From the IMG/VR virus record IMGVR_UViG_2718218168_000005: a stretch of 42,656 bases of DNA. One strand, written 5' to 3'. Position numbers and translations under genes: made by a program. Source of the DNA: a virus (lineage: Duplodnaviria; Heunggongvirae; Uroviricota; Caudoviricetes). The notes below the pieces were generated by a model. That model did not search any database. It had not been told where the DNA came from and worked only from the letters and a program-made list of their open reading frames with translations. Positions 1,285 through 37,906 of the stretch are shown here, piece after piece; position 1 is the stretch's first letter; each line of letters opens with the position of its first letter.

Positions 1285-1887
1285 AATTCACAGGTGTTTT
1301 TTCCCATCCTGTGGTTTCCTTGGCGTTTTCTAGGTTTTTTCAGATAGTTGCATTTTTTAAAAAGCATCCTAAGTTCGATCTCTGTGTCTATCTGGGGCCT
1401 ATTTCTGTCCCATATATGCCCCAAAAAAACTCCCCAACAGATAAGTAGTTTTTTCATGGATTTATGCGTAAAATCAAGAACGGCTGGAAATCATTCAATA
1501 CTCACACTATCGAAAAATTTACCAGCCAACCGCAGCACCTTCTTGCATAAGGCGTGTCTGCGGTTTTTCAACTATTCAGATACATCACTCCCATCACATT
1601 CATTCCTCCGCATCAAAGGCATATAGGCTATATCACCTTGATATTTTTCTTTTTCAGATAAAAACTGTTATCTATGTATACTTTTAAACCCAATCCGTGT
1701 AGAGTCTCTGCATAAGATAGTTTGCAGTTGCCGCTTCAGCTTGCGCCATAAACCGCCTGATTTTTGCTGCCACCTGTTAGCATTCCTGTATACCTGAAAC
1801 GACAATGTTTATCTACGAACTTTAAGAACACCCAAGATAAAAATTGTCAACTATATCATATATAACACATTACTAATTCGAGGCTAT

Positions 1888-2001
1888 ATGAACAGCATAC
1901 TGATAATCACATCTCTCCTTATCATATTCAGCATTTTTAGTCATGCCCTAATAAAATTAGGGATTGGCATATCCAATAACCCAGACAAAACCGATGTATA
2001 A
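1888..2001 (+). CDS. hypothetical small hydrophobic peptide (37 aa, [37 protein letters not shown])
   Basis: ATG preceded by AGG 5 nt upstream; single predicted TM helix; below the ORF-track size cutoff; no homolog recognised. Confidence 0.25.
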
Positions 2002-2069
2002 GTCAACATATCCTGAATCAGACATACAATATCGCAATGAAAATCAATAATATTTTAAGGAATATCTTC

Positions 2070-2303
2070 ATGAAATCAAAAGACACCCTAAAGTGGTTCC
2101 CTGCGCAGCTTCCTGAAGTAAGAATTATCCTAGGGGATGCTGTAGTGGAAGTAGCAAAACAGGGAAGACCTATCAATACCAGAACATTGCTTGATTACAT
2201 TGAAGGAAACATAAAGAAAAAATCATGGCTGGATAACAAAGAATTATTACAAACAGCGATATCAGTTCTTAAAGACAACCAAAATTTAAATGGTAAAATG
2301 TAA
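2070..2303 (+). CDS. ydfK: YdfK/YnaE-family prophage cold-shock-induced protein (77 aa)
   Basis: Protein MKSKDTLKWFPAQLPEV... matches recalled YdfK/YnaE; AAGGAA 7 nt upstream of the ATG at 2070; the ORF-track start at 2037 has no SD. Confidence 0.8.
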   Translation: MKSKDTLKWFPAQLPEVRIILGDAVVEVAKQGRPINTRTLLDYIEGNIKKKSWLDNKELLQTAISVLKDNQNLNGKM

Positions 2304-2619
2304 TATAATAAACTTACTTTTTTATCATTTTTCCACTTTAACAACATTTTGCTCCTCTTTTCCACGACCAAACAACTTGAAATCTGGTTAAAATAACACG
2401 CAACACTATTCTTCTTCCTTGAGTCCGCCCGGAACTCGAAAAACAAACCGAGTTAAAGCCATTTTTCACAAAATCGATTTTGGGTCTCACCAAAATTACG
2501 GGGTTGCATACGCATTCGTTTATTTTCGAACGTGTACATACAAATATGCACAAAAATAATCATAATTATTTTCTGAGATGCATTATGATATGAACACCAA
2601 TTTCGTATAGAGTCTCACT

Positions 2620-3210
2620 ATGTCTCAAATTTTTGCTTACTGTCGGATATCAACGCTGGATCAGACCACCGAAAATCAACGCCGGGAAATCGAAAGTGCA
2701 GGTTTTAAAATCAAACCTCAGCAAATAATCGAAGAACACATTAGCGGCTCAGCAGCAACCAGTGAGCGTCCTGGTTTTAACCGGTTGCTTGCTCGCCTGA
2801 AATGTGGTGATCAATTGATTGTGACAAAACTGGATCGCCTTGGTTGTAATGCAATGGATATCAGGAAAACAGTGGAACAACTGACCGAAACAGGTATCAG
2901 AGTGCATTGCTTAGCATTGGGGGGCATTGACCTGACCAGTCCAACAGGAAAAATGATGATGCAAGTAATTTCAGCAGTCGCTGAATTTGAACGAGACCTT
3001 TTACTTGAACGCACTCATTCCGGGATAGTAAGAGCCCGCGGCGCAGGGAAACGTTTTGGTCGACCACCTGTGTTAAATGAAGAACAGAAACAGGTGGTAT
3101 TCGAACGAATTAAGTCAGGTGTAAGTATAAGTGCCATTGCCCGGGAATTCAAAACCTCGCGGCAAACCATTTTAAGAGCCAAAGCAAAACTTCAGACACC
3201 TGACATATAA
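2620..3210 (+). CDS. pinQ: Serine recombinase, Pin/Gin/Hin DNA-invertase family (196 aa)
   Basis: N-terminal catalytic motif YCRISTLDQ and C-terminal HTH typical of Din invertases; position next to ydfK as in Qin/Rac. Confidence 0.9.
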
Positions 3211-3283
3211 AAAATAATCTCGGTGTGAGATGCTTTACGTCTTCCAAGCCCCCTGATCCTACCCACGTAATATGGACACAGGC

Positions 3284-4150
3284 CTAAGCGAGGTTCTTGT
3301 TTTCAAATTGTTCCGGACTGAGGCCGCCACACCAACTGTGCCGCCGCCACCGATTGTAATCACATTCGATATAATTAAACACCGTTGCCCGCATTATTTC
3401 CCGGCTGATAAAGTGTTCTCCATGGATACATTCCACTTTCAGCGAATGAAAGAAGCTTTCCACGCAGGCATTATCGTAGCAGCAACCTTTTGCGCTCATA
3501 CTTCCACGCAGATTATGCCGCTTCAGTTGCGCCTGATAATCTGCTGAACAGTACTGGCCTCCACGGTCCGTGTGAACGATAACGTTCCGGGGCCTCTTAC
3601 GCCGCCACAGCGCCATCTGCAGGGCATCGCAGGCCAGTTGCGCCGTCATGCGTGGCGACATTGACCAGCCAATAACGGCACGTGACCACAGGTCAATGAC
3701 CACTGCCAGATACAGCCAGCCTTCATCTGTACGTAAGTACGTGATGTCTCCTGCCCACTTCTGGTTCGGGCCACTGGCGTAAAAATCCTGCTCCAACAGA
3801 TTTTCTGACACAGGCAGGCCGTGTGCGCGGTAGCTGACCGGGCTGAACTTCCGGGAGGCCTTTGCCCTCAGTCCCTGACGGCGCAGGCTTGCCGCCACGG
3901 TTTTTACGTTAAAGGGGTAACCCTGAGCACGCAGTTCATCCGTCAGGCGTGGGGCACCGTAACGCTGTTTTGACCGGGTAAAAGCCGCGAGGACAACGCT
4001 GTCGCAGTGTTGGCGGAACTGCTGACGCGTGCTTATCCTTGTCCGCCGCTGACACCACGTATACCAGCCGCTGCGGGCCACCCGGAGCACGCGGCACATT
4101 GCTTTGATGCTGAACTCAGCCTGATGTTTTTCAATAAAGACATACTTCAT
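3284..4150 (-). CDS. insF: IS3 transposase OrfB (DDE/rve catalytic domain), normally made as OrfAB by -1 frameshift
   Basis: 288-aa ORF matching recalled IS3 InsF. Confidence 0.9.
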
Positions 4151-5415: not shown

Positions 5416-6056
5416 TTGTCGGTGTACCTCTCTCGTTTGCTCAGTTGTTCAGGAATATGGTGCAGCAGCTCGCCGTCGCCGCAGTAAATTGCGGCGTGAT
5501 TCGGCACCGATGAACCAAAACAGCACAGCAGCACATCGCCCGGCTGTGCCGCTGACAACGGCACCTGATACAGCCCTGTGGCCTCCAGATTATCCAGATA
5601 GAGATTCTGGCCGTTACGCCACCAGTCATCCTCACGATGAAAGGCCGGCATCTCAATCCCCGCCAGATGATAAGCATCCCGGAACAGTGTGTAACAGTCC
5701 GTCACACCGTGCTCAAAGCGCCGCCCGGTGAGATGCGGCACACAGCGGAACTTATGAATCGTCCCCCGGCAGACCAGCCACCACGGCAAATCACTCTGCA
5801 CCTGCAGCCGCCGGTCGGCCTCACTCAGCCAGGGCAGACCACCGGGGTGGCTGTGGACCAGCGCCACAATCTCACCCTGCATTTCTGCCTGCAGCCAGTC
5901 TTCCGGCGACATACGGAAATACGCCTCCGGCTCACCGGAGATATTCACGCAGGGGAAATATCTTTCCCCCTCCGGCGTGCTTACCACGAAGCCGCACGAC
6001 TCCGCTGGCGCACATCGCCGGGCGTGCGCCAGAATCGCTGATTCTGTCTGTGTCAT
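5313..6056 (-). CDS. K: Tail assembly protein K (MPN/JAB plus NlpC/P60-like); 247-aa ORF, classical 199-aa lambda start would be 5912
   Basis: Matches lambda gpK; HSHP metal-binding motif present; ORF extends 48 codons upstream of the classical start and abuts L. Confidence 0.85.
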   Translation of the reverse strand: MTQTESAILAHARRCAPAESCGFVVSTPEGERYFPCVNISGEPEAYFRMSPEDWLQAEMQGEIVALVHSHPGGLPWLSEADRRLQVQSDLPWWLVCRGTIHKFRCVPHLTGRRFEHGVTDCYTLFRDAYHLAGIEMPAFHREDDWWRNGQNLYLDNLEATGLYQVPLSAAQPGDVLLCCFGSSVPNHAAIYCGDGELLHHIPEQLSKRERYTDKWQRRTHSLWRHRAWRASAFTGIYNDLVAASTFV

Positions 6057-21830: not shown

Positions 21831-22101
21831 GATGTTACCGTAGTATGTGAGTATCCATCGAATAGACACCAAGCCAAAAAGCTCCCGAAGGAGCCTTCAT
21901 TTTCACTTTTTTAAATCCAACGACAGACGGCTGGCATTTAAGTATTGTGAAATATTATCAAATGTAATCATCATTGATTTACAAAAGATACATTTTGCCC
22001 CGAAAGGATTCATGTCAGAAACATCAAAAGATGATGTTCTATACTGGGAACCATGACAACACGGGCATCTAAAGTGAATATGGTTTGTAATATTGTCTAC
22101 C

Positions 22102-22314
22102 TCAAAGCGCCACTACATGAACAGCGGCAGGACCTTTAGGTCCGTTCTCAATACCAAATTCAACTTCCTGATTCTCAGTTAATGTTTTGAAATCGTTGCT
22201 CTGAATTGCTGAGAAATGGACAAACACATCTTTGCTGCCATCTTTCGGCGTGATGAAACCAAAACCTTTTTCAGGGTTAAACCATTTCACTAAACCAGTC
22301 ATTTTGTTAGACAT
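22102..22314 (-). CDS. cspI: Cold shock protein CspI-like (70 aa)
   Basis: CspA-family motifs ([20 protein letters not shown]); Qin position. Confidence 0.9.
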
Positions 22315-22676
22315 AATTATTACCTTTTGAAGAAATTAGCCCTTGGGCAGAATGGTCCGAAAAAAAATATCAGAGAGAAAAACCAACAAGGAAATCTCAA
22401 GAGGTACAAATAATAAAATTATAACAATGACTGCTTCAGATAAATTTGTAACAAACCAGAACACCATTAACGCATGATTAACCACCCATAGCAAGGATTA
22501 CTTTTGTAAAGAAAAACACAGCAATGAAAGAATAGCTTTATTTATTAATAAAACGTGTCATTCTGATTAAGACCTTTTATCTTACCCTTAAGATTTCAGG
22601 AATTTTGGCTCATGGAAGAGTCCTTTTTATTTAAATTTTACATTCCGCGATGTAAATGTTCCGATTTAATATTACC

Positions 22677-24703: not shown

Positions 24704-24984
24704 GAGATTGTGGTGCTTTTTGTGGGAGTCATCCACTTACGCACTTTGTTTTGCGATGCCAGCAGTTAGCTTCTGCTGTGAAACTATTCATGCAGCAAAC
24801 CTGCACTTCACCACAATGGTTAGCATACTTTTCCTGATTAAGATTTTGCCAAATATGCTGGCCATTGTTTCATGTATTGGACCTCCTTACTTTTTATTAA
24901 AGAGATCCAATATTCACTACTCTGTCCGTATCTCTACTCAGGCATCAGCCTTCTTCGTTATCGTATACAGACGAGCGATGAATT

Positions 24985-25200
24985 TTAATCAGTAATGATG
25001 ACATTTACTGCTGCAGGACCTTTAGCACCACTCTCTATAGAGAAGGTAACCTTTTGACCTTCAAATAAGGTTCGATAATTATCATTCTGAATCGCAGAAA
25101 AATGCACAAACACATCTTTACTACCATCAACAGGAGAAATAAAGCCGAAACCTTTATCAGCGTTAAACCATTTTACTAAACCAGTCATTTTATTTGACAT
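24985..25200 (-). CDS. cspB: Cold shock protein CspB-like (71 aa)
   Basis: CspA-family motifs; divergent from cspF. Confidence 0.9.
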
Positions 25201-25510
25201 TCTACATTCCTTAACTTGAGCCTTTCGGCATAAATGGTTTGCATAACAGAAACGACTTCGTACTTAATTGGAGAGACTCAAAGAAGGAATAAGTGAATAA
25301 CACCTGAAATGAGAACTGCTTTAGTAAACTACTTCGTATATCGTCTGTTCTTCAAACCGACGCAGTCATTAACTCATAGTTGAACATATGAAGCAATGTT
25401 TATTTTAGACATCCAGCCACCTTCAATCCTATCAAAAAAGTAGTTTTCTCCAGGAACGTGTGTATGGTGCACCAGGTTATCAGTATTAAGGAGTTTTTCT
25501 GTCCCCTAAA

Positions 25511-28762: not shown

Positions 28763-28918
28763 TTACTCCTCAGGTTCGTAAGCTGTGAAGACAGCGACCT
28801 CCGTCTGGCCGGTTCGGATTCGTACCTCGCAGAGGTCTTTCCTCGTTACCAGTGCCGTCACTATGACGGTTAAACAGATGACGATCAGGGCGATTAACAT
28901 CGCCTTTTGCTGCTTCAT
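28763..28918 (-). CDS. hokD: Hok-family type I toxin (51 aa)
   Basis: Translated by hand: MKQQKAMLIALIVICLTVIVTALVTRKDLCEVRIRTGQTEVAVFTAYEPEE; below the ORF-track cutoff. Confidence 0.9.
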   Translation of the reverse strand: MKQQKAMLIALIVICLTVIVTALVTRKDLCEVRIRTGQTEVAVFTAYEPEE

Positions 28919-28989
28919 AGCCTGCTTCTCCTGTCAACGCAAAGCAGAAGTGTCACCTTCGGTGCGAAACAGAGATGTCATGCTTTGGT

Positions 28990-29277
28990 TCAGAGAATGC
29001 GTTTGACCGCCTCGCTATATACTTCCGAGCGTTCTCTTTTCCCAACAGAAATCACGAAAACGACAACTTTCTCGTCTATAACCTGGTATACAAGGCGATA
29101 GCCTGAAGACCGGAGCTTAATCTTGTAACAATCAGGCATACCACGGAGCTTGTTTGCTTCAATCCGGGGTGACTCAAGTACTTCAACCAGCTTCTTTTTC
29201 AACTGTTCACGTACCGTCGAGCCCAGCTTTCGCCATTCCTTTAGTGCCCGCTCGTCAAAATCCAGAAAATACGCCAT
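28990..29277 (-). CDS. relE: RelE mRNA-interferase toxin (95 aa)
   Basis: Matches recalled RelE. Confidence 0.92.
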   Translation of the reverse strand: MAYFLDFDERALKEWRKLGSTVREQLKKKLVEVLESPRIEANKLRGMPDCYKIKLRSSGYRLVYQVIDEKVVVFVISVGKRERSEVYSEAVKRIL

Positions 29278-29516
29278 CAGAGTTCATCCAGCGTCACACG
29301 TACTGGCTTAGGATTACGAAGCCGTTCTTTCACTATCTCCACAAGTTCAGCATCTTCATCACTCAGGAGTGTCTGTTTGAACGGCAAGCGTTCATTGTCA
29401 GCGATATACTCGAGCATGAGACGAAGCGCTTCAGAAGGAGTTACACCCATTTTTTCAAGCGCGGCGTAAGAACGCGCTTTAAGTTCATCGTCAATACGCA
29501 GGTTAATGCTACCCAT
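29277..29516 (-). CDS. relB: RelB antitoxin (79 aa)
   Basis: Matches recalled RelB; overlaps the relE start. Confidence 0.92.
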   Translation of the reverse strand: MGSINLRIDDELKARSYAALEKMGVTPSEALRLMLEYIADNERLPFKQTLLSDEDAELVEIVKERLRNPKPVRVTLDEL

Positions 29517-29540
29517 GTCTTACACCTCTTGTAATTACAA

Positions 29541-29846
29541 ATGTCATTACAAGTATCGCACTACAACATGCTTAGGGCAAGTCACGAAGGAAGTCAGAAA
29601 GTAGTCGTAAGAACGGTGATCACTGTCCGCTTTGTGCCAGGAGCAGCCATTGCTAAGTCCATCCTGTATTGTGCAGGTCAGCTCGTTTTTAAAGAGTCCG
29701 GCCATCATCTTACTGGTACAGACACCATATACTTTGTGACGGTCAGGCTACATATGCACAACTCAACTTATTCATCTATTTTTTGCTTTAGCATGTCAGT
29801 GTTGCTTTCTCGTCGGCGGGTGAGCGGTGACCTGACCTGTCGATAA
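29541..29846 (+). CDS. ydfV: hypothetical protein YdfV-like (101 aa)
   Basis: Position between relB and flxA as in Qin; function unknown. Confidence 0.5.
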   Translation: MSLQVSHYNMLRASHEGSQKVVVRTVITVRFVPGAAIAKSILYCAGQLVFKESGHHLTGTDTIYFVTVRLHMHNSTYSSIFCFSMSVLLSRRRVSGDLTCR

Positions 29847-29998
29847 AGGAACGTAACACGTTTTATGCAACACCCGCATGCGGCAGAAAATTATTGCCGA
29901 ACGTTTACCCCTGTCAACAAGCTTTACTTTCTGAGGCGCGCCAGCCCGCGAGGAAAACAATCTGAACATCAAACAATTAATGACACAAGAAATACGAT

Positions 29999-30025
29999 TA
30001 AAGATTTTTTTGTACATGCCGATAG
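29999..30025 (+). promoter_or_regulatory. Sigma-28 (FliA) promoter for flxA
   Basis: TAAAGATT-N11-GCCGATAG, close to the class III consensus TAAAGTTT-N11-GCCGATAA, about 25 nt upstream of flxA. Confidence 0.7.
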
Positions 30026-30048
30026 TGCTTTTTTAAAAGGAGAAATCT

Positions 30049-30381
30049 ATGTCTGTCACAATTCAGGGAAATACCTCAACCGTTATTTCAAACAACTCCG
30101 CCCCGGAAGGAACATCAGAAATAGCCAAAATCACAAGACAAATTCAGGTGCTGACTGAAAAGCTTGGGAAAATCTCATCGGAAGAGGGGATGACGACACA
30201 GCAGAAAAAAGAAATGGCTGCATTGGTACAGAAGCAAATTGAAAGCCTCTGGGCTCAACTGGAGCAGTTGTTAAGGCAGCAGGCAGAGAAAAAGAATGAA
30301 GACGCGACAGTTCAGCCTGATAAAAAAGAAGAGAAAAAAGACGATACAAATACCGCTGGCACCATTGATATTTACGTCTAA
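30049..30381 (+). CDS. flxA: FlxA (FliA-regulated protein, 110 aa)
   Basis: Matches recalled FlxA; AGGAGA SD upstream. Confidence 0.85.
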   Translation: MSVTIQGNTSTVISNNSAPEGTSEIAKITRQIQVLTEKLGKISSEEGMTTQQKKEMAALVQKQIESLWAQLEQLLRQQAEKKNEDATVQPDKKEEKKDDTNTAGTIDIYV

Positions 30382-30395
30382 GTGACAGCCGTATT

Positions 30396-30420
30396 GTGGC
30401 CCTCATCGGGCCACTTTTCG
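30396..30420 (+). terminator. Rho-independent terminator downstream of flxA
   Basis: Hairpin gtggccc-tcatc-gggccac followed by TTTT. Confidence 0.65.
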
Positions 30421-30817
30421 CCATCAGCCTTTTCTTTAAAGACATATTATCTTTGTATCATTTCTGATAGTTAACATTACAAGATATAAGTAATGGACGC
30501 ACTCCCAATTAGTCTATTTAAATCGCCACGAGTTTAACTGACAACCCATGATCAATTATGAATTGCAACTATTTCTGTAGTCACTTTTGTGGGGACAGTC
30601 CACAAAACTGCCAACTTCCGCTTCTTGCTCTTAGCGGACATTAGCATAGGCTATTTACCATAACGCCTCATTACGCGCACCGCCCAGACTGACTCAGCGC
30701 GTTTCTGGCATATCCCCGGTAAAACAAGTAACAAACCACCCGAAAATGAACACCAGAAACGCGACTTAAGAATCTACCCTATGAATGGATATGCACTCAA
30801 CCGAATCGATCTTGGTT

Positions 30818-32158
30818 TCAATCTTTTTTATCGGGATCAGGCTTCTTTTTAGGTAACTTCGGGGGCTTAACTTGCTGATGACTTTGCGTTCGGCGCGTAA
30901 GCCAGGGATGGTCAGCTTTAGGTTTAACATAGTATTTTGAGCGTAAATCAATACGGGCATTATCCACTCGTTCATGGACACTCTTTTCATCATCCAGTGG
31001 TATAGGCTCCGGGCCATCAACATACTTTTCCCAGCCCAGCGCTTTCCCGTCATACAGAACGTTAATTTCACCGTCAAAGTTCTCGCATACAGTAACAACC
31101 GAATGCCTAAGTCGATATCCCCGGCTCTCACTGCGTACCTGAAACGCACTGCTTTTGTACTGGAAAGTGAGATTTTTAGACAGAACGCGCTTCGCCTGTA
31201 GGCTGAAGATATAACCCAGTTCCTCTTCAGAATGGTGCACATCAAGATGAGCATTATCAGTAGTACGAGGCGACGTAGCGAACCGGTTGTTATAGGCTTC
31301 AATAAAGGTCGGCAACCATGCATTTGCTGTTTCAATATCACTGATATTCTGAAGCCGCATTTCTTTGACCAGCCTGTCCTGTAGTGTCTGATTGGCGCGC
31401 TCTACCCGCCCTTTTGCCTGCGGGCTGTTGGCATGGATTGGCTCGATGCCCAGTGTCTTTATCGCACGAGTGAACTGGGTCAGCTCACCTTCCCGCTCTG
31501 GGTTATTTACCCTGAATATACTGTGTCTATCAGAGTAGAGAGCGAGCGGTACGCCATGATCATTAAGGTAACCCCGGAGGGTTTCCATGTAAGCCCGGGT
31601 TGTTTCAGCAGGCACAAAACGCAACGCCATCAACGCACTGGTGGCATCATCAATGAAAACGATCAGTGTACATCTGGGGCCTCGATTTTCAAACCAGTCA
31701 TGAGGTGAGCCATCAATCTGGATCAGTTCACCGTAAGATGGTCGTCGCATGCGGCGTTGATATATACGGGCAATTTTACGACGGCGTTCACGCCATAACC
31801 CCTCTTCTATCATCCACTTTCTGAGAGTTTCAACGGATAAAGATAAACCGTGTATCTCGCGCAATTTTTCGCACGCAAACGTAGGTCCAAAATCAGCGTA
31901 ACGGCCTTTGAGGAGTGAAATTACTGTTGCTCTGAATTCAGTAGAAAAGGAATTATTAGGACGCTTTCCACGTCGGTGGGAAACCAGACCAGAAGGCCCT
32001 TCATTTCTATACCGTTGCACCAGACGTTTAACCTGCCGAATAGAAATGCCAATGCGTGCCGCAGCTTGTTCCTGAGTAATATGTCGATTAATTGACTCCT
32101 GAATAATCTGAAGTCGGTGGAGTTCCTTATGACTCATCGTAACAGTCTCTTTGATCAT
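30818..32158 (-). CDS. DDE transposase with rve (integrase core) domain and N-terminal HTH, IS481/IS1202-like (446 aa)
   Basis: Motifs IQIDGSPHDW, FIDDATS and ANSPQAKGRVERANQTLQ form a DDE triad; element boundaries not identified. Confidence 0.75.
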   Translation of the reverse strand: MIKETVTMSHKELHRLQIIQESINRHITQEQAAARIGISIRQVKRLVQRYRNEGPSGLVSHRRGKRPNNSFSTEFRATVISLLKGRYADFGPTFACEKLREIHGLSLSVETLRKWMIEEGLWRERRRKIARIYQRRMRRPSYGELIQIDGSPHDWFENRGPRCTLIVFIDDATSALMALRFVPAETTRAYMETLRGYLNDHGVPLALYSDRHSIFRVNNPEREGELTQFTRAIKTLGIEPIHANSPQAKGRVERANQTLQDRLVKEMRLQNISDIETANAWLPTFIEAYNNRFATSPRTTDNAHLDVHHSEEELGYIFSLQAKRVLSKNLTFQYKSSAFQVRSESRGYRLRHSVVTVCENFDGEINVLYDGKALGWEKYVDGPEPIPLDDEKSVHERVDNARIDLRSKYYVKPKADHPWLTRRTQSHQQVKPPKLPKKKPDPDKKD

Positions 32159-32166
32159 GAAAAATC

Positions 32167-32186
32167 CCCCAGAGAATTGTCTGGGG
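32167..32186 (-). promoter_or_regulatory. Hairpin overlapping the transposase Shine-Dalgarno sequence
   Basis: Perfect 7-bp stem ccccaga/tctgggg with 6-nt loop; on the minus strand the GGGGGA SD lies within and next to the 3' arm. Confidence 0.4.
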
Positions 32187-32492
32187 ACATTTTAGAATGG
32201 TTCAAAGGGGACATTACAGCTTGGTGTTAACAATAGCCTGCTTCTCCGTGCCTTTCGGCACGTAAGAGGCTAACCTACATGTGTCTAGCATGAAATTGGC
32301 CTCAGATTAATGTTAAGCGTCTTGCAGGACGCGTAATGTTAACTGGGGCTTTTCTCTATCTGCCGTTGGTGTCCATGCCCGAGGCAGATAGCCTCAAGCA
32401 CCCGCAGTCATTCTACTTAACTAAGATTTCCCCGCAAACCGTTTTTGTCCAGCACAGTAAATATCCAACTAAACCAATGGAGTTCGCTGTAT

Positions 32493-32672
32493 TTACCGCC
32501 AGTATTCAATGCACATGACCGCCATGAACACCCCTAAAAAAAGGGCATTTATATATCCAAATATTAATATCAAAACATCAACTTTTTCCATATACCTTGC
32601 TGTGAAGATGATGGGCATACATGATGCGAACAACCAGAACGCAACAAACAAAAACTGCAATGCGTTTTTCAT
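32493..32672 (-). CDS. hypothetical small membrane protein (59 aa, two predicted TM segments)
   Basis: AGGAGG 5 nt upstream of ATG; MKNALQFLFVAFWLFASCMPIIFTARYMEKVDVLILIFGYINALFLGVFMAVMCIEYWR. Confidence 0.45.
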   Translation of the reverse strand: MKNALQFLFVAFWLFASCMPIIFTARYMEKVDVLILIFGYINALFLGVFMAVMCIEYWR

Positions 32673-32958
32673 TATTCCTCCTACAATCAATGTGCAATTA
32701 CATTTAAACACACCTCAATTTGGCCGGACATATAAATATCTAAACCAGAAAAAATCACTTACATAGCGTTACAAACTCTTTAGTCTAAAGGTTCATCGTA
32801 AAACATTCCCCATACTTATCAGTCCGTTCCGCGCCAGGTAGCTCATTGCCTTATCTGGCAACCTGTAATCAGGTTTCCGCTTTTTCAGTTGGCTGGTCGT
32901 TTAACCGACATAGTTAATCCATTAATCTAGTTGCCGGATGTTGGTGGATTTTCGCGTT

Positions 32959-33213
32959 TTAGTTGTTCATAAAAGTGCACAGCTTTAACCAGTTCTTCTG
33001 ATGTAACCGGGACTGGTGAGGCAGTGAATAAGGCCTGAATTTGATAGTTCGGCCTGTCGTTACAATCCTCTTTTTTCGGTACATATTTCCAGTCACCAGA
33101 CCACTACTTCCCCTGAAAGTCCGTAACGCTTTTTTCACGTAGCGATATCGCCATGCCACTGGTTTTGCTTGCCCCGCCGTTTCATGCCCTTCCTGATAAT
33201 TAATCTCGCTCAT
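32959..33213 (-). pseudogene. Possible disrupted gene: best-looking reading frame is interrupted by an in-frame TAG and flanked by A6 runs
   Basis: Hand translation in three frames; the frame ending ...PVPVTSEELVKAVHFYEQLKRENPPTSGN looks protein-like but is cut by TAG, and the ORF-track 84-aa frame looks low-complexity. Confidence 0.3.
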
Positions 33214-33823
33214 TCATCGCCCCACTCATCACAATATGCTTCGACCGGAGTTTTTCCCGCTTCATAGTCATCACGTTAGGATTCGACATCAGCAGCACTT
33301 CCACCGCGTAATTCACCATAGTCCATTAATAGTTCATCCCGCTCTTCAAAACTGATGTTATATTTAGCTGAACAAAAATCAGCCACTTTGTTCTTCCTCA
33401 TCGTCTTTTATTTCGTGGTATGAGTAATTGCAGTAGTTAAAGAAAATTTCTTATGCTCCGTCATGAATTTCATCAGGTGTTGCGTCATCGTCCACTTCGA
33501 ATACATCCTCAAAATCTCCACCAGCTATTTCCGTTTCAATAATAATTTTGAACTTTCGCATTTCACTACCGCCCTTTCGGGCGGCCTCCTGATGTTCTGA
33601 GGGTGCAGAAATCCATCCGGTTAAGGATTAAGTTTTATTTACAGAACTGAATTTAATTATTCAGATATACGTATCTGTAACCTTACGAATCTACTCACTG
33701 GATGCCTCTTTCATAAAAATAATCCAGTGGGTTTTATCGTTTTTTCCCTGTTCGTTGACAGATAACAGGCTTTCTATCTGTCAGTGCCAGAATCTGGCTT
33801 ACCGGTATTTGCGTTTCATTCCA

Positions 33824-34180
33824 TTAAAAAATCAGAACGCCGTGCGGCCTCAACACCCGAAAAGCTTCTTTAAATCTCTGTCGCAAATCATCACGCCAGG
33901 CATCTTTATTCAGCCGTCCATATTTCTTTCCCATCCAGGCGTTATCACCAACACGCTCAAGATGCGGAGGGTCTAATACAACCATCGAAAAAGATGCGTC
34001 TGCAAATGATAATGCACGAAAATCTGCGATAATGTCAGGGCTGATAATCAAGCGTCTCCCATTGCGTAATGTGTATCCTTCTTTTCTGATATCGCTGAAT
34101 ATCGCCCGTTTGTCAGACTTATCGAACCAGAACATGCGGCTGCCACAGCACATATCAAGAATGGTTGCCGGTGCACTCAC
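33824..34180 (-). CDS. SAM-dependent DNA methyltransferase fragment (118 aa; motif I-like and DPPH motif IV, no target-recognition domain)
   Basis: ILDMCCGSRMF (motif I-like) and VVLDPPH (motif IV-like); ORF stops at a T6 run and no extension exists in any frame. Confidence 0.5.
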   Translation of the reverse strand: MSAPATILDMCCGSRMFWFDKSDKRAIFSDIRKEGYTLRNGRRLIISPDIIADFRALSFADASFSMVVLDPPHLERVGDNAWMGKKYGRLNKDAWRDDLRQRFKEAFRVLRPHGVLIF

Positions 34181-37849: not shown

Positions 37850-37906
37850 TTTCTGGTGACGTTTGGCGGTATCAGTTTTACTCCGTGACTGCTCTGCCGC
37901 CCTTTT
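37850..37906 (+). ncRNA. dicF: DicF small regulatory RNA (ftsZ-targeting sRNA) with intrinsic terminator
   Basis: Sequence TTTCTGGTGACGTTTGGCGGTATCAGTTTTACTCCGTGACTGCTCTGCCGCCCTTTTT matches recalled DicF; ends are approximate. Confidence 0.85.

Follow-up and report, generated by a model that had tools for sequence, protein, structure and literature searches.

A decayed early region of a Qin-type prophage and a hok leader parted from its toxin gene by a relBE transposon

How does a complete hok mRNA leader, with its antisense gene sok, come to stand at the edge of a row of phage genes with no toxin gene behind it, and what are the small open reading frames (ORFs) beside it? The question is raised by positions 32336–33823 of a 42,656-nucleotide stretch of phage DNA (IMG/VR record IMGVR_UViG_2718218168_000005), the whole of which we call the window. 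A preliminary description of this segment, made from the sequence, had offered two possibilities, a decayed module or small-protein cargo such as a membrane toxin with regulators. The whole window is a Qin-type lambdoid prophage of Escherichia coli, and the segment, all of whose genes read on the minus strand, extends from the replication genes to the hok-rem-ydfU-Q block, a location conserved in Qin- and Rac-type lambdoid prophages. On the sequence evidence, we are confident that it forms the distal part of the early-right region in a Qin-type cryptic prophage, equivalent to a nin region and in an advanced state of decay, and that its hok leader and sok were orphaned by a transposon carrying relBE. 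The features around the left edge of the segment are as follows.

28763..28918, minus strand: hokD (relF) toxin ORF of 51 amino acids, the detached 3' half of the hok locus, directly behind relE
28917..28931, minus strand: target-site duplication, copy 2, 15 bp, directly before the hokD coding sequence
28932..32232, minus strand: IS1202-family (ISEsa1-like) transposon, 3301 bp, forming the left boundary of the segment
32233..32247, minus strand: target-site duplication, copy 1, GGAGAAGCAGGCTAT, 15 bp, from the hok Shine-Dalgarno sequence to the AT of the ATG
32233..32440, minus strand: candidate hok promoter and complete hok mRNA leader, from Rfam and alignment to intact hok loci
32248..32358, plus strand: putative sok antitoxin gene, from promoter hexamers read from the sequence and compared with relatives, and from its fold

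The transposon starts with TGTTAACACCAAGCTGTAATGTCCCC and ends with GGTGACACTTCTGCTTTGCGTTGACA, giving it TGT/ACA ends. Its termini are imperfect inverted repeats of 26 bp, matching at 19 of 26 positions (TGTTAACACCAAGCTGTAATGTCCCC versus TGTCAACGCAAAGCAGAAGTGTCACC), and a second repeat resembling a transposase site can be read in the sequence 25 nucleotides inward of each end. The whole unit, which carries a transposase gene (32158..30818, 446 amino acids), flxA, ydfV, relB, and relE, is flanked by the perfect 15-bp direct repeat GGAGAAGCAGGCTAT. In strain PI12, the site is found precisely empty: the leader allele is the same, the 15-mer occurs once, and hokD is intact. Of the 40 records listed from across the ranking, about 23 give the same two-piece empty-site match of about 80–105 nucleotides, and most matching genomes probably carry the empty allele. 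The target-site duplication, together with the inverted repeats and empty sites, shows that hokD was cut off from its leader and from sok by the 3301-bp relBE transposon, which landed at the start codon of hok, duplicating 15 bp.

What remains upstream of the insertion is a full-length leader. Rfam model RF01794 matches at 32232..32403 (minus strand) with 104.1 bits (gathering score 59), over positions 1–157 of its 157. A candidate hok promoter can be read in front of it, with the −35 hexamer TTGCGG at 32437..32432 and the −10 hexamer TAGAAT at 32415..32410, separated by 16 nucleotides. In the predicted leader, transcription starts at about 32403, and the leader breaks off two bases into the hok ATG, where the transposon begins; a truncated mok-like ORF (32291..32214, minus strand) extends into the element. 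No Hok toxin ORF (PF01848) lies directly 3' of the leader, and hokD is found 3.3 kb away. We thus read the hok leader and sok at this site as an orphan half-locus and not as a working hok/sok module. A membrane-toxin system does stand at the left edge of the segment, but it is hok/sok, which the preliminary description had not recognised and which is separated from its toxin ORF. The hok promoter would still fire a toxin-less leader into the transposon, and the only expression of hokD would now be from the third position of the relBE operon, without control by Sok. A terminator-like hairpin, TCCCCAGACAATTCTCTGGGGG, followed by a T-run, is present inside the transposon end (window 32166–32187, minus strand), upstream of the transposase start, and would keep transcripts begun at the hok promoter from running on into the transposase gene.

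The transposase matches NF033594 (7e-140), the model of the ISNCY_2/IS1202 type, and is found at full length, 93–100% identical over its 446 amino acids, in Klebsiella, Enterobacter, Citrobacter, and Kluyvera. RefSeq/PGAP annotates 30818–32158 (minus strand) as an 'incomplete' ISEsa1-family transposase together with a separate YdfW of 49 amino acids. We rejected this division into an incomplete transposase, missing its C-terminus, plus ydfW, since the region is one uninterrupted frame of 446 codons that occurs at full length in many genera; the split is an annotation artefact. The ydfW (intK) gene of K-12 is thus the 3' remnant of the transposase gene, produced by a deletion with its breakpoint at about window position 31002. 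We also considered an insertion sequence (IS) of 1.6 kb ending near 30620 and rejected it, as there is no convincing inverted repeat at that place and the true distal end lies beside relE. Homology between copies of the element stops at about positions 1606–1631 of the element.

To the right of the hok leader, the segment was aligned with intact references, namely phage 640R1, the Rac prophage of strain 442/2 (Rac442), E. coli SMS-3-5, our locus L013, and the Stx2c phage EH0430. In the direction of reading, its features are as follows.

33691..34180, minus strand: phage orphan DNA methyltransferase pseudogene, with its tail (33691–33823) inside the segment
33562..33690, minus strand: conserved leader 5' of the DUF7167 gene, kept in 640R1 and Rac442
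33379..33561, minus strand: DUF7167 (phrog_1997) pseudogene, from alignment with intact copies; 60 codons in relatives
33210..33386, minus strand: pseudogene of a 58-codon early gene, matching the C-terminal part of phrog_519
32793..33213, minus strand: pseudogene of a 171-amino-acid early gene, from nucleotide alignment to L007:3046-3561
32493..32672, minus strand: intact 59-codon ORF with two hydrophobic stretches and an AGGAGG start signal

A base-by-base comparison with these references shows four consecutive pseudogenes, each killed by nonsense, frameshift, or deletion, and they would give no functional product. PGAP independently flags three of the four in each of the genomes MEI005 and KO11FL, the two records together covering all four. 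The methyltransferase gene carries a premature TAA at 33826..33824, where relatives have AAA, and a frameshift in an A-run near 33745, as found by a three-frame comparison with the intact gene of EH0430; its natural stop is 33693..33691 and not 33824. The open frame matches phrog_954 (9e-60) over profile positions 52–165 of 229 only. No single frame holds a complete S-adenosylmethionine-binding methyltransferase domain, the remainder lying behind the TAA and the frameshift, whereas an intact relative matches the PADLOC model MTase_II at 1e-72. A PADLOC scan of the small genes returned nothing besides the methyltransferase. In MEI005, whose copy is 100% identical, PGAP labels the gene 'frameshifted; internal stop'.

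The DUF7167 gene is halted at codon 37 by an AAA-to-TAA change (33453..33451), leaving a remnant of 36 amino acids that begins MRK; PGAP labels the KO11FL copy 'internal stop'. An intact relative matches Pfam PF23768 (7.9e-15) and phrog_1997 (9e-31), whereas the window copy is not full-length. The leader of this gene has kept a peculiar layout: an AGGAGG at 33590..33585, 23 nucleotides upstream of the ATG, is followed by a GC hairpin, CCGCCCGAAAGGGCGG (33584..33569), that fills the gap to the ATG (fold −16.9 kcal/mol, z = −3.4). The order of Shine-Dalgarno sequence, hairpin, and ATG is conserved in 640R1 and in Rac442, with a G-U variant in Rac; the DUF7167 Shine-Dalgarno sequence would come near the start codon only in the folded state of the hairpin. 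In the 58-codon gene, the start ATG has become GTG (33386..33384) and a TGG has become a TAA stop (33278..33276). A second ORF beginning MRK, 41 amino acids long (33401..33276), is the frame of this gene extended upstream to a new ATG made by a GAA-to-GAT change.

E. coli SMS-3-5 and locus L013 have the gene of 171 amino acids in intact form. In the window, it has suffered a 1-nucleotide deletion after the first A6 run (at about 33131), an in-frame TAG (33106..33104), an 89-nucleotide deletion, and a 4-nucleotide deletion, and the listed 84-amino-acid ORF at 32959..33213 (minus strand) is a frameshifted reading of it. PGAP annotates it at the same coordinates in MEI005 and KO11FL as 'frameshifted; internal stop', and the Rac record carries a note of the same frameshifted gene. 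The A-run reads A6GG in the intact gene of SMS-3-5, A6G in the window (loss of one nucleotide), and A8GG in 640R1 (gain of two). Judged from these alleles, the run is an indel hot spot, at which the window and 640R1 were independently frameshifted in the same place.

These results bear out most of what had been noticed of the small ORFs and the suggestion of a decayed module: the protein-like frame is indeed cut by an in-frame TAG and has two A6 runs, the single-nucleotide deletion coming directly after the first, and the MRK ORFs, the TAG-cut frame, and the methyltransferase tail are all pseudogene fragments of conserved lambdoid early genes. The two MRK ORFs exist (33451..33561, 36 amino acids; 33276..33401, 41 amino acids), with coordinates that had been placed 2–9 nucleotides off. 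The homology searches that had been proposed for the small ORFs identify families for intact relatives of the MRK ORFs (PF23768/phrog_1997 and phrog_519) and none for the 59-amino-acid ORF.

Further markers of the prophage type were located with Rfam.

37851–37902: DicF small RNA
22075–22460: cspA-type 5' leader
24938–25361: cspA-type 5' leader

The two cspA-type leaders are of the cspB/cspI class, and the window holds one sok leader. The presence of DicF and the csp leaders confirms the window as a Qin-type prophage, with an early region more complete than that of K-12. The closest genomes are MEI005, 100% identical over the region, and E. coli W/KO11FL and phage PhiR42_1 (from ECOR13), both at about 99%; PhiR42_1, which was deposited as a complete phage genome, is 99.3% identical. 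The gene order in MEI005, KO11FL, and PhiR42_1 is dicB-ydfCBA-dicA-dicC-cII-like-O-DUF977-methyltransferase, then the segment, then transposase-flxA-ydfV-relBE-hokD-rem-ydfU. Of 5426 complete E. coli genomes, 567 contain 80% or more of the segment, and identity reaches at least 99% in 523 records; this is an old arrangement with a wide distribution. A tRNA scan found no tRNA genes in the hairpin-rich stretch at about 32800–32900, and a promoter scan of the segment gave fewer matches than shuffled sequence, none of them usable.

The only frame in the row to have escaped such lesions is the 59-codon ORF, which lies in an AT-rich spacer of about 390 nucleotides next to the 171-amino-acid pseudogene. 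It might be a genuine small inner-membrane protein, whether a toxin, a holin-like or exclusion factor, or a modulator linked to hok/sok, for whose sake the segment has been kept. The ORF is exactly where the preliminary description had put it (32493..32672, minus strand), with an AGGAGG (32682..32677) 4 nucleotides before its ATG and two hydrophobic stretches, at about residues 4–24 and 31–56. Its perfect Shine-Dalgarno sequence at an ideal spacing is rare in the window, in which AGGAGG-N3-9-ATG was observed at 5 sites against 1.9 expected, and the two stretches would form clear hydrophobic helices. It also accompanies the hok leader in several settings (640R1, L012, and L013), and 1569 of 5426 complete E. 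coli genomes have the 351-nucleotide region that holds it, at 97.7–100% identity. However, it has no family match in Pfam, NCBIfam, PHROGs, or PADLOC, and a search for distant homologues among 5.8 billion proteins found sequences in E. coli and Shigella only (74–100% identity), many of them truncated or fused, with breakpoints inside the ORF. PGAP annotates nothing in the region in any of the 40 genomes listed. Among nine copies, all 5 polymorphisms in the ORF are nonsynonymous and none is synonymous, a count of low power given that the copies are at least 97.7% identical; the density of polymorphic sites (2.8%, against 4.1% in the flanks) does not speak for constraint either, and purifying selection, in the form of a synonymous excess with conserved start and stop, was not detected at this low power. 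Other copies have AGGGGG as the Shine-Dalgarno sequence, one has lost its stop through a 23-nucleotide duplication, and another is cut by an IS. A T-rich strand, moreover, yields hydrophobic ORFs through composition alone. We therefore find a genuine inner-membrane protein doubtful, and with no toxin or other family match and no coding constraint detected, the earlier suggestion of a membrane toxin is not borne out. The likeliest readings of the 59-codon ORF are that it is no functional gene or that it is a gene of very recent origin confined to one lineage.

A second alternative concerns sok, which could have been kept for a function in trans, neutralising hok mRNAs encoded by plasmids or phages that enter the cell (anti-addiction) or by chromosomal hok loci other than this one. 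The predicted sok promoter has the hexamers GTGCCT and TAACCT at a spacing of 17 nucleotides; transcription would start near 32283 and yield a hairpin (32298..32350) with a U-rich tail (fold −32.8 kcal/mol, z = −4.3). Both hexamers lie outside the transposon, the hok leader and Sok hairpin are fully preserved, as the score of 104 bits attests, and the orphan arrangement persists in hundreds of genomes. Yet the −35 hexamer differs by a T-to-G change from the TTGCCT of the empty-site allele and of relatives, the neighbourhood is decaying throughout, and no target in trans was identified; the persistence, for its part, can be explained by linkage and young age, as the genomes are at least 99% identical. 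A trans function thus seems improbable to us. On the reading of an orphan half-locus, production of Sok RNA may continue, from a promoter that the −35 change has weakened, but in cis there is no toxin left for it to control.

Next, the segment might be a horizontally acquired, AT-rich cargo island, or moron, made up of a small-protein toxin and acidic regulators. Its GC content of 41.4% lies 5–7 points under that of the flanking 2–4 kb (46–48%; 49.3% for the whole window), and its small ORFs are acidic. Calling it markedly AT-rich, as had been done, overstates a real difference, in that about 13% of equal-sized windows within the 42.6 kb are as AT-rich or more so. Against cargo, many lambdoid phages and prophages have these genes, identically ordered, as their backbone in the interval from the replication genes to hok/Q, and intact forms of all three small genes adjoin hok, in this order, in locus L013 and in SMS-3-5; this synteny already contradicts the idea of a cargo island. 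The intact relatives of the module have a GC content of 43.5–44.7%, so that the AT-richness belongs to the module and is no sign of foreign origin, and the acidic ORFs, which had been proposed as regulators, are products of truncation of the conserved 60- and 58-amino-acid genes, a truncated DUF7167 gene and a mutated 58-codon gene. Cargo is therefore a very remote prospect. Expression of the interrupted frames by programmed recoding, through slippage on the A-runs or stop readthrough, in genes that still function has next to nothing to recommend it: A6 runs do adjoin the frameshift and the run differs in length among relatives (A6 here, A8 in 640R1), but the 171-amino-acid gene also has the in-frame TAG and the 89- and 4-nucleotide deletions, the other genes have plain TAA stops in no known recoding context, and the intact relatives need no recoding.

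Some points weigh against an advanced decay of the whole region. That the pseudogenes give no functional product and that Sok is still made are both things that we infer. PhiR42_1 carries the same region, and the decay seen here is hence no proof that the whole prophage is dead. The unusually good start signal of the 59-codon ORF, the only intact frame in the row, makes a real small protein conceivable, if unlikely. With about 8 lesions per roughly 1350 nucleotides of nearby pseudogene, a neutral ORF of 180 nucleotides would be spared about 1 time in 3, and its intactness therefore says little either way. We regard the segment as an instance of ordinary prophage decay, already flagged in RefSeq, and the adjacent hok-targeting relBE transposon as the noteworthy item. 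The value of the segment is mainly one of annotation, as its candidate toxin and regulator ORFs are debris of known phage genes and not small-protein cargo. The window also keeps the 5' half of a hok locus of which the 3' half is familiar from K-12 as hokD/relF, and this preserved half makes it a base-level record of how relBE reached the front of hokD.

Is this insertion a single event, or one of a kind? Complete related copies of the element were delimited at other loci, as follows.

L095, Citrobacter IncFIB plasmid: 4600 bp, duplication of 16 bp
L026, Kluyvera chromosome: 4600 bp, duplication of 16 bp
L033, Kluyvera: 4487 bp, duplication of 13 bp
L030, Leclercia: 4901 bp, duplication of 10 bp
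L093, IncHI2/IncC plasmid: 6093 bp, duplication of 15 bp

The elements thus measure 3.3–6.1 kb, and the duplications in six complete copies are 15, 15, 16, 16, 13, and 10 bp, four of the six being 15–16 bp. A further locus, L025, also holds an ISEsa1-like relBE transposon. All complete copies keep relBE and the distal repeat, with a middle cargo that varies. The kinds of cargo seen in these transposons are flxA-ydfV, a cation diffusion facilitator (CDF) transporter with a cytochrome b, and genes for resistance to nickel and chromate. Between the two 4600-bp copies, identity is 99.96%, yet they lie at unrelated targets with different duplications, which shows that the whole unit moves. In about 10 different versions of the flank, from prophages and plasmids, the transposase-proximal end abuts a hok leader at the ATG or within a few bases of it, and in five species the Rfam sok model ends exactly at the transposon repeat.

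On balance, we lean towards the view that these elements form an undescribed group of ISEsa1-like transposons, always with relBE at the distal end and a variable cargo, which make duplications of about 15–16 bp and by preference insert, in one orientation, at hok start codons in prophages and plasmids. Each insertion would yield a relB-relE-hok operon and an orphan sok, which would explain both the origin of relBEF in K-12 and the entry of no target-site duplication and no target in ISFinder. The relBE-bearing element appears to have a strong preference for hok start codons, and it is common among resistance plasmids of the IncF, IncHI2, and IncR types. Should this be confirmed, it would be a case of one toxin-antitoxin system, on a transposon, capturing another, and the ISFinder definition of ISEsa1 would be corrected.

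Several observations were made beside these copies. Loci L094 and L097, on IncR and IncFIB plasmids, have the transposon core followed by nickel (ncrABCY) and chromate resistance genes, and in L097 the next relBE-hok pair lies about 12 kb downstream of the core, which suggests large forms of the element that carry metal resistance, but no distal repeat turned up in the sequence examined of L094 and L097. In L030, from Leclercia sp. EMC7, a second ISEsa1-like element (5555–6045, about 71% identity) stands directly after the duplication of the first, so that two related elements have landed at the same hok start site. In L026, positions 3837–3950 match the Rfam isrO model with 58.8 bits (gathering score 42) across the junction between the Kluyvera chromosome and the transposase-proximal end; the isrO model may have been built on a sequence containing such a transposon end.

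Among known loci, the nearest is Qin of E. coli K-12 (dicC ... ydfW-flxA-ydfV-relBE-hokD-rem-ydfU), which has the same genes in the same order, is near-identical from hokD through flxA to ydfW, and also carries DicF and csp leaders. The K-12-type genome J53 keeps only query positions 1299–3421 of the transposon region and therefore lacks most of the transposase, the right end of the transposon, and the junction with the hok leader, so that the window represents a less deleted state. The K-12 deletion, we presume from the K-12 gene order, continues across the segment studied here to near dicC.

With the hok/sok family, the locus shares the promoter, the folded 5' leader, the mok start, and the antisense Sok hairpin, which fit the model over its full length; unlike a working hok/sok, it has no toxin ORF after the leader, the toxin standing 3.3 kb away under relBE. 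Pedersen and Gerdes reportedly described, in 1999, inactive chromosomal hok loci of K-12 associated with IS elements (hokA, hokC, and hokE) and a 'rearranged' hokD. The locus described here resembles hokA, hokC, hokE, and hokD of K-12 as a chromosomal hok locus disabled by a mobile element. Integration of relBE into hokD is itself already published, as stated in a passage of PMC6379469 that cites Ramisetty and Santhosh 2016. In the present case, the missing 5' half of the locus has survived, and the inserted unit has base-exact limits, given by its inverted repeats, the duplicated 15 bp, and an empty site. Our literature search, with incomplete coverage of journals, found no published description of the relBE transposon, of its ends, or of a preference for hok.

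The IS1202 family is characterised by imperfect terminal inverted repeats of 24–29 bp with 5'-TGT and ACA-3' ends (PMC10132070), and the transposase (NF033594), the TGT/ACA ends, and the imperfect 26-bp repeats of the window element match this family and its ISEsa1 subgroup. ISFinder gives ISEsa1 as 1609 bp long, with no duplication and no known target (PMC10132070). In contrast, the units described here are 3.3–6.1 kb long, always end with relBE, and are flanked by duplications of 10–16 bp, mostly at the start codons of hok genes.

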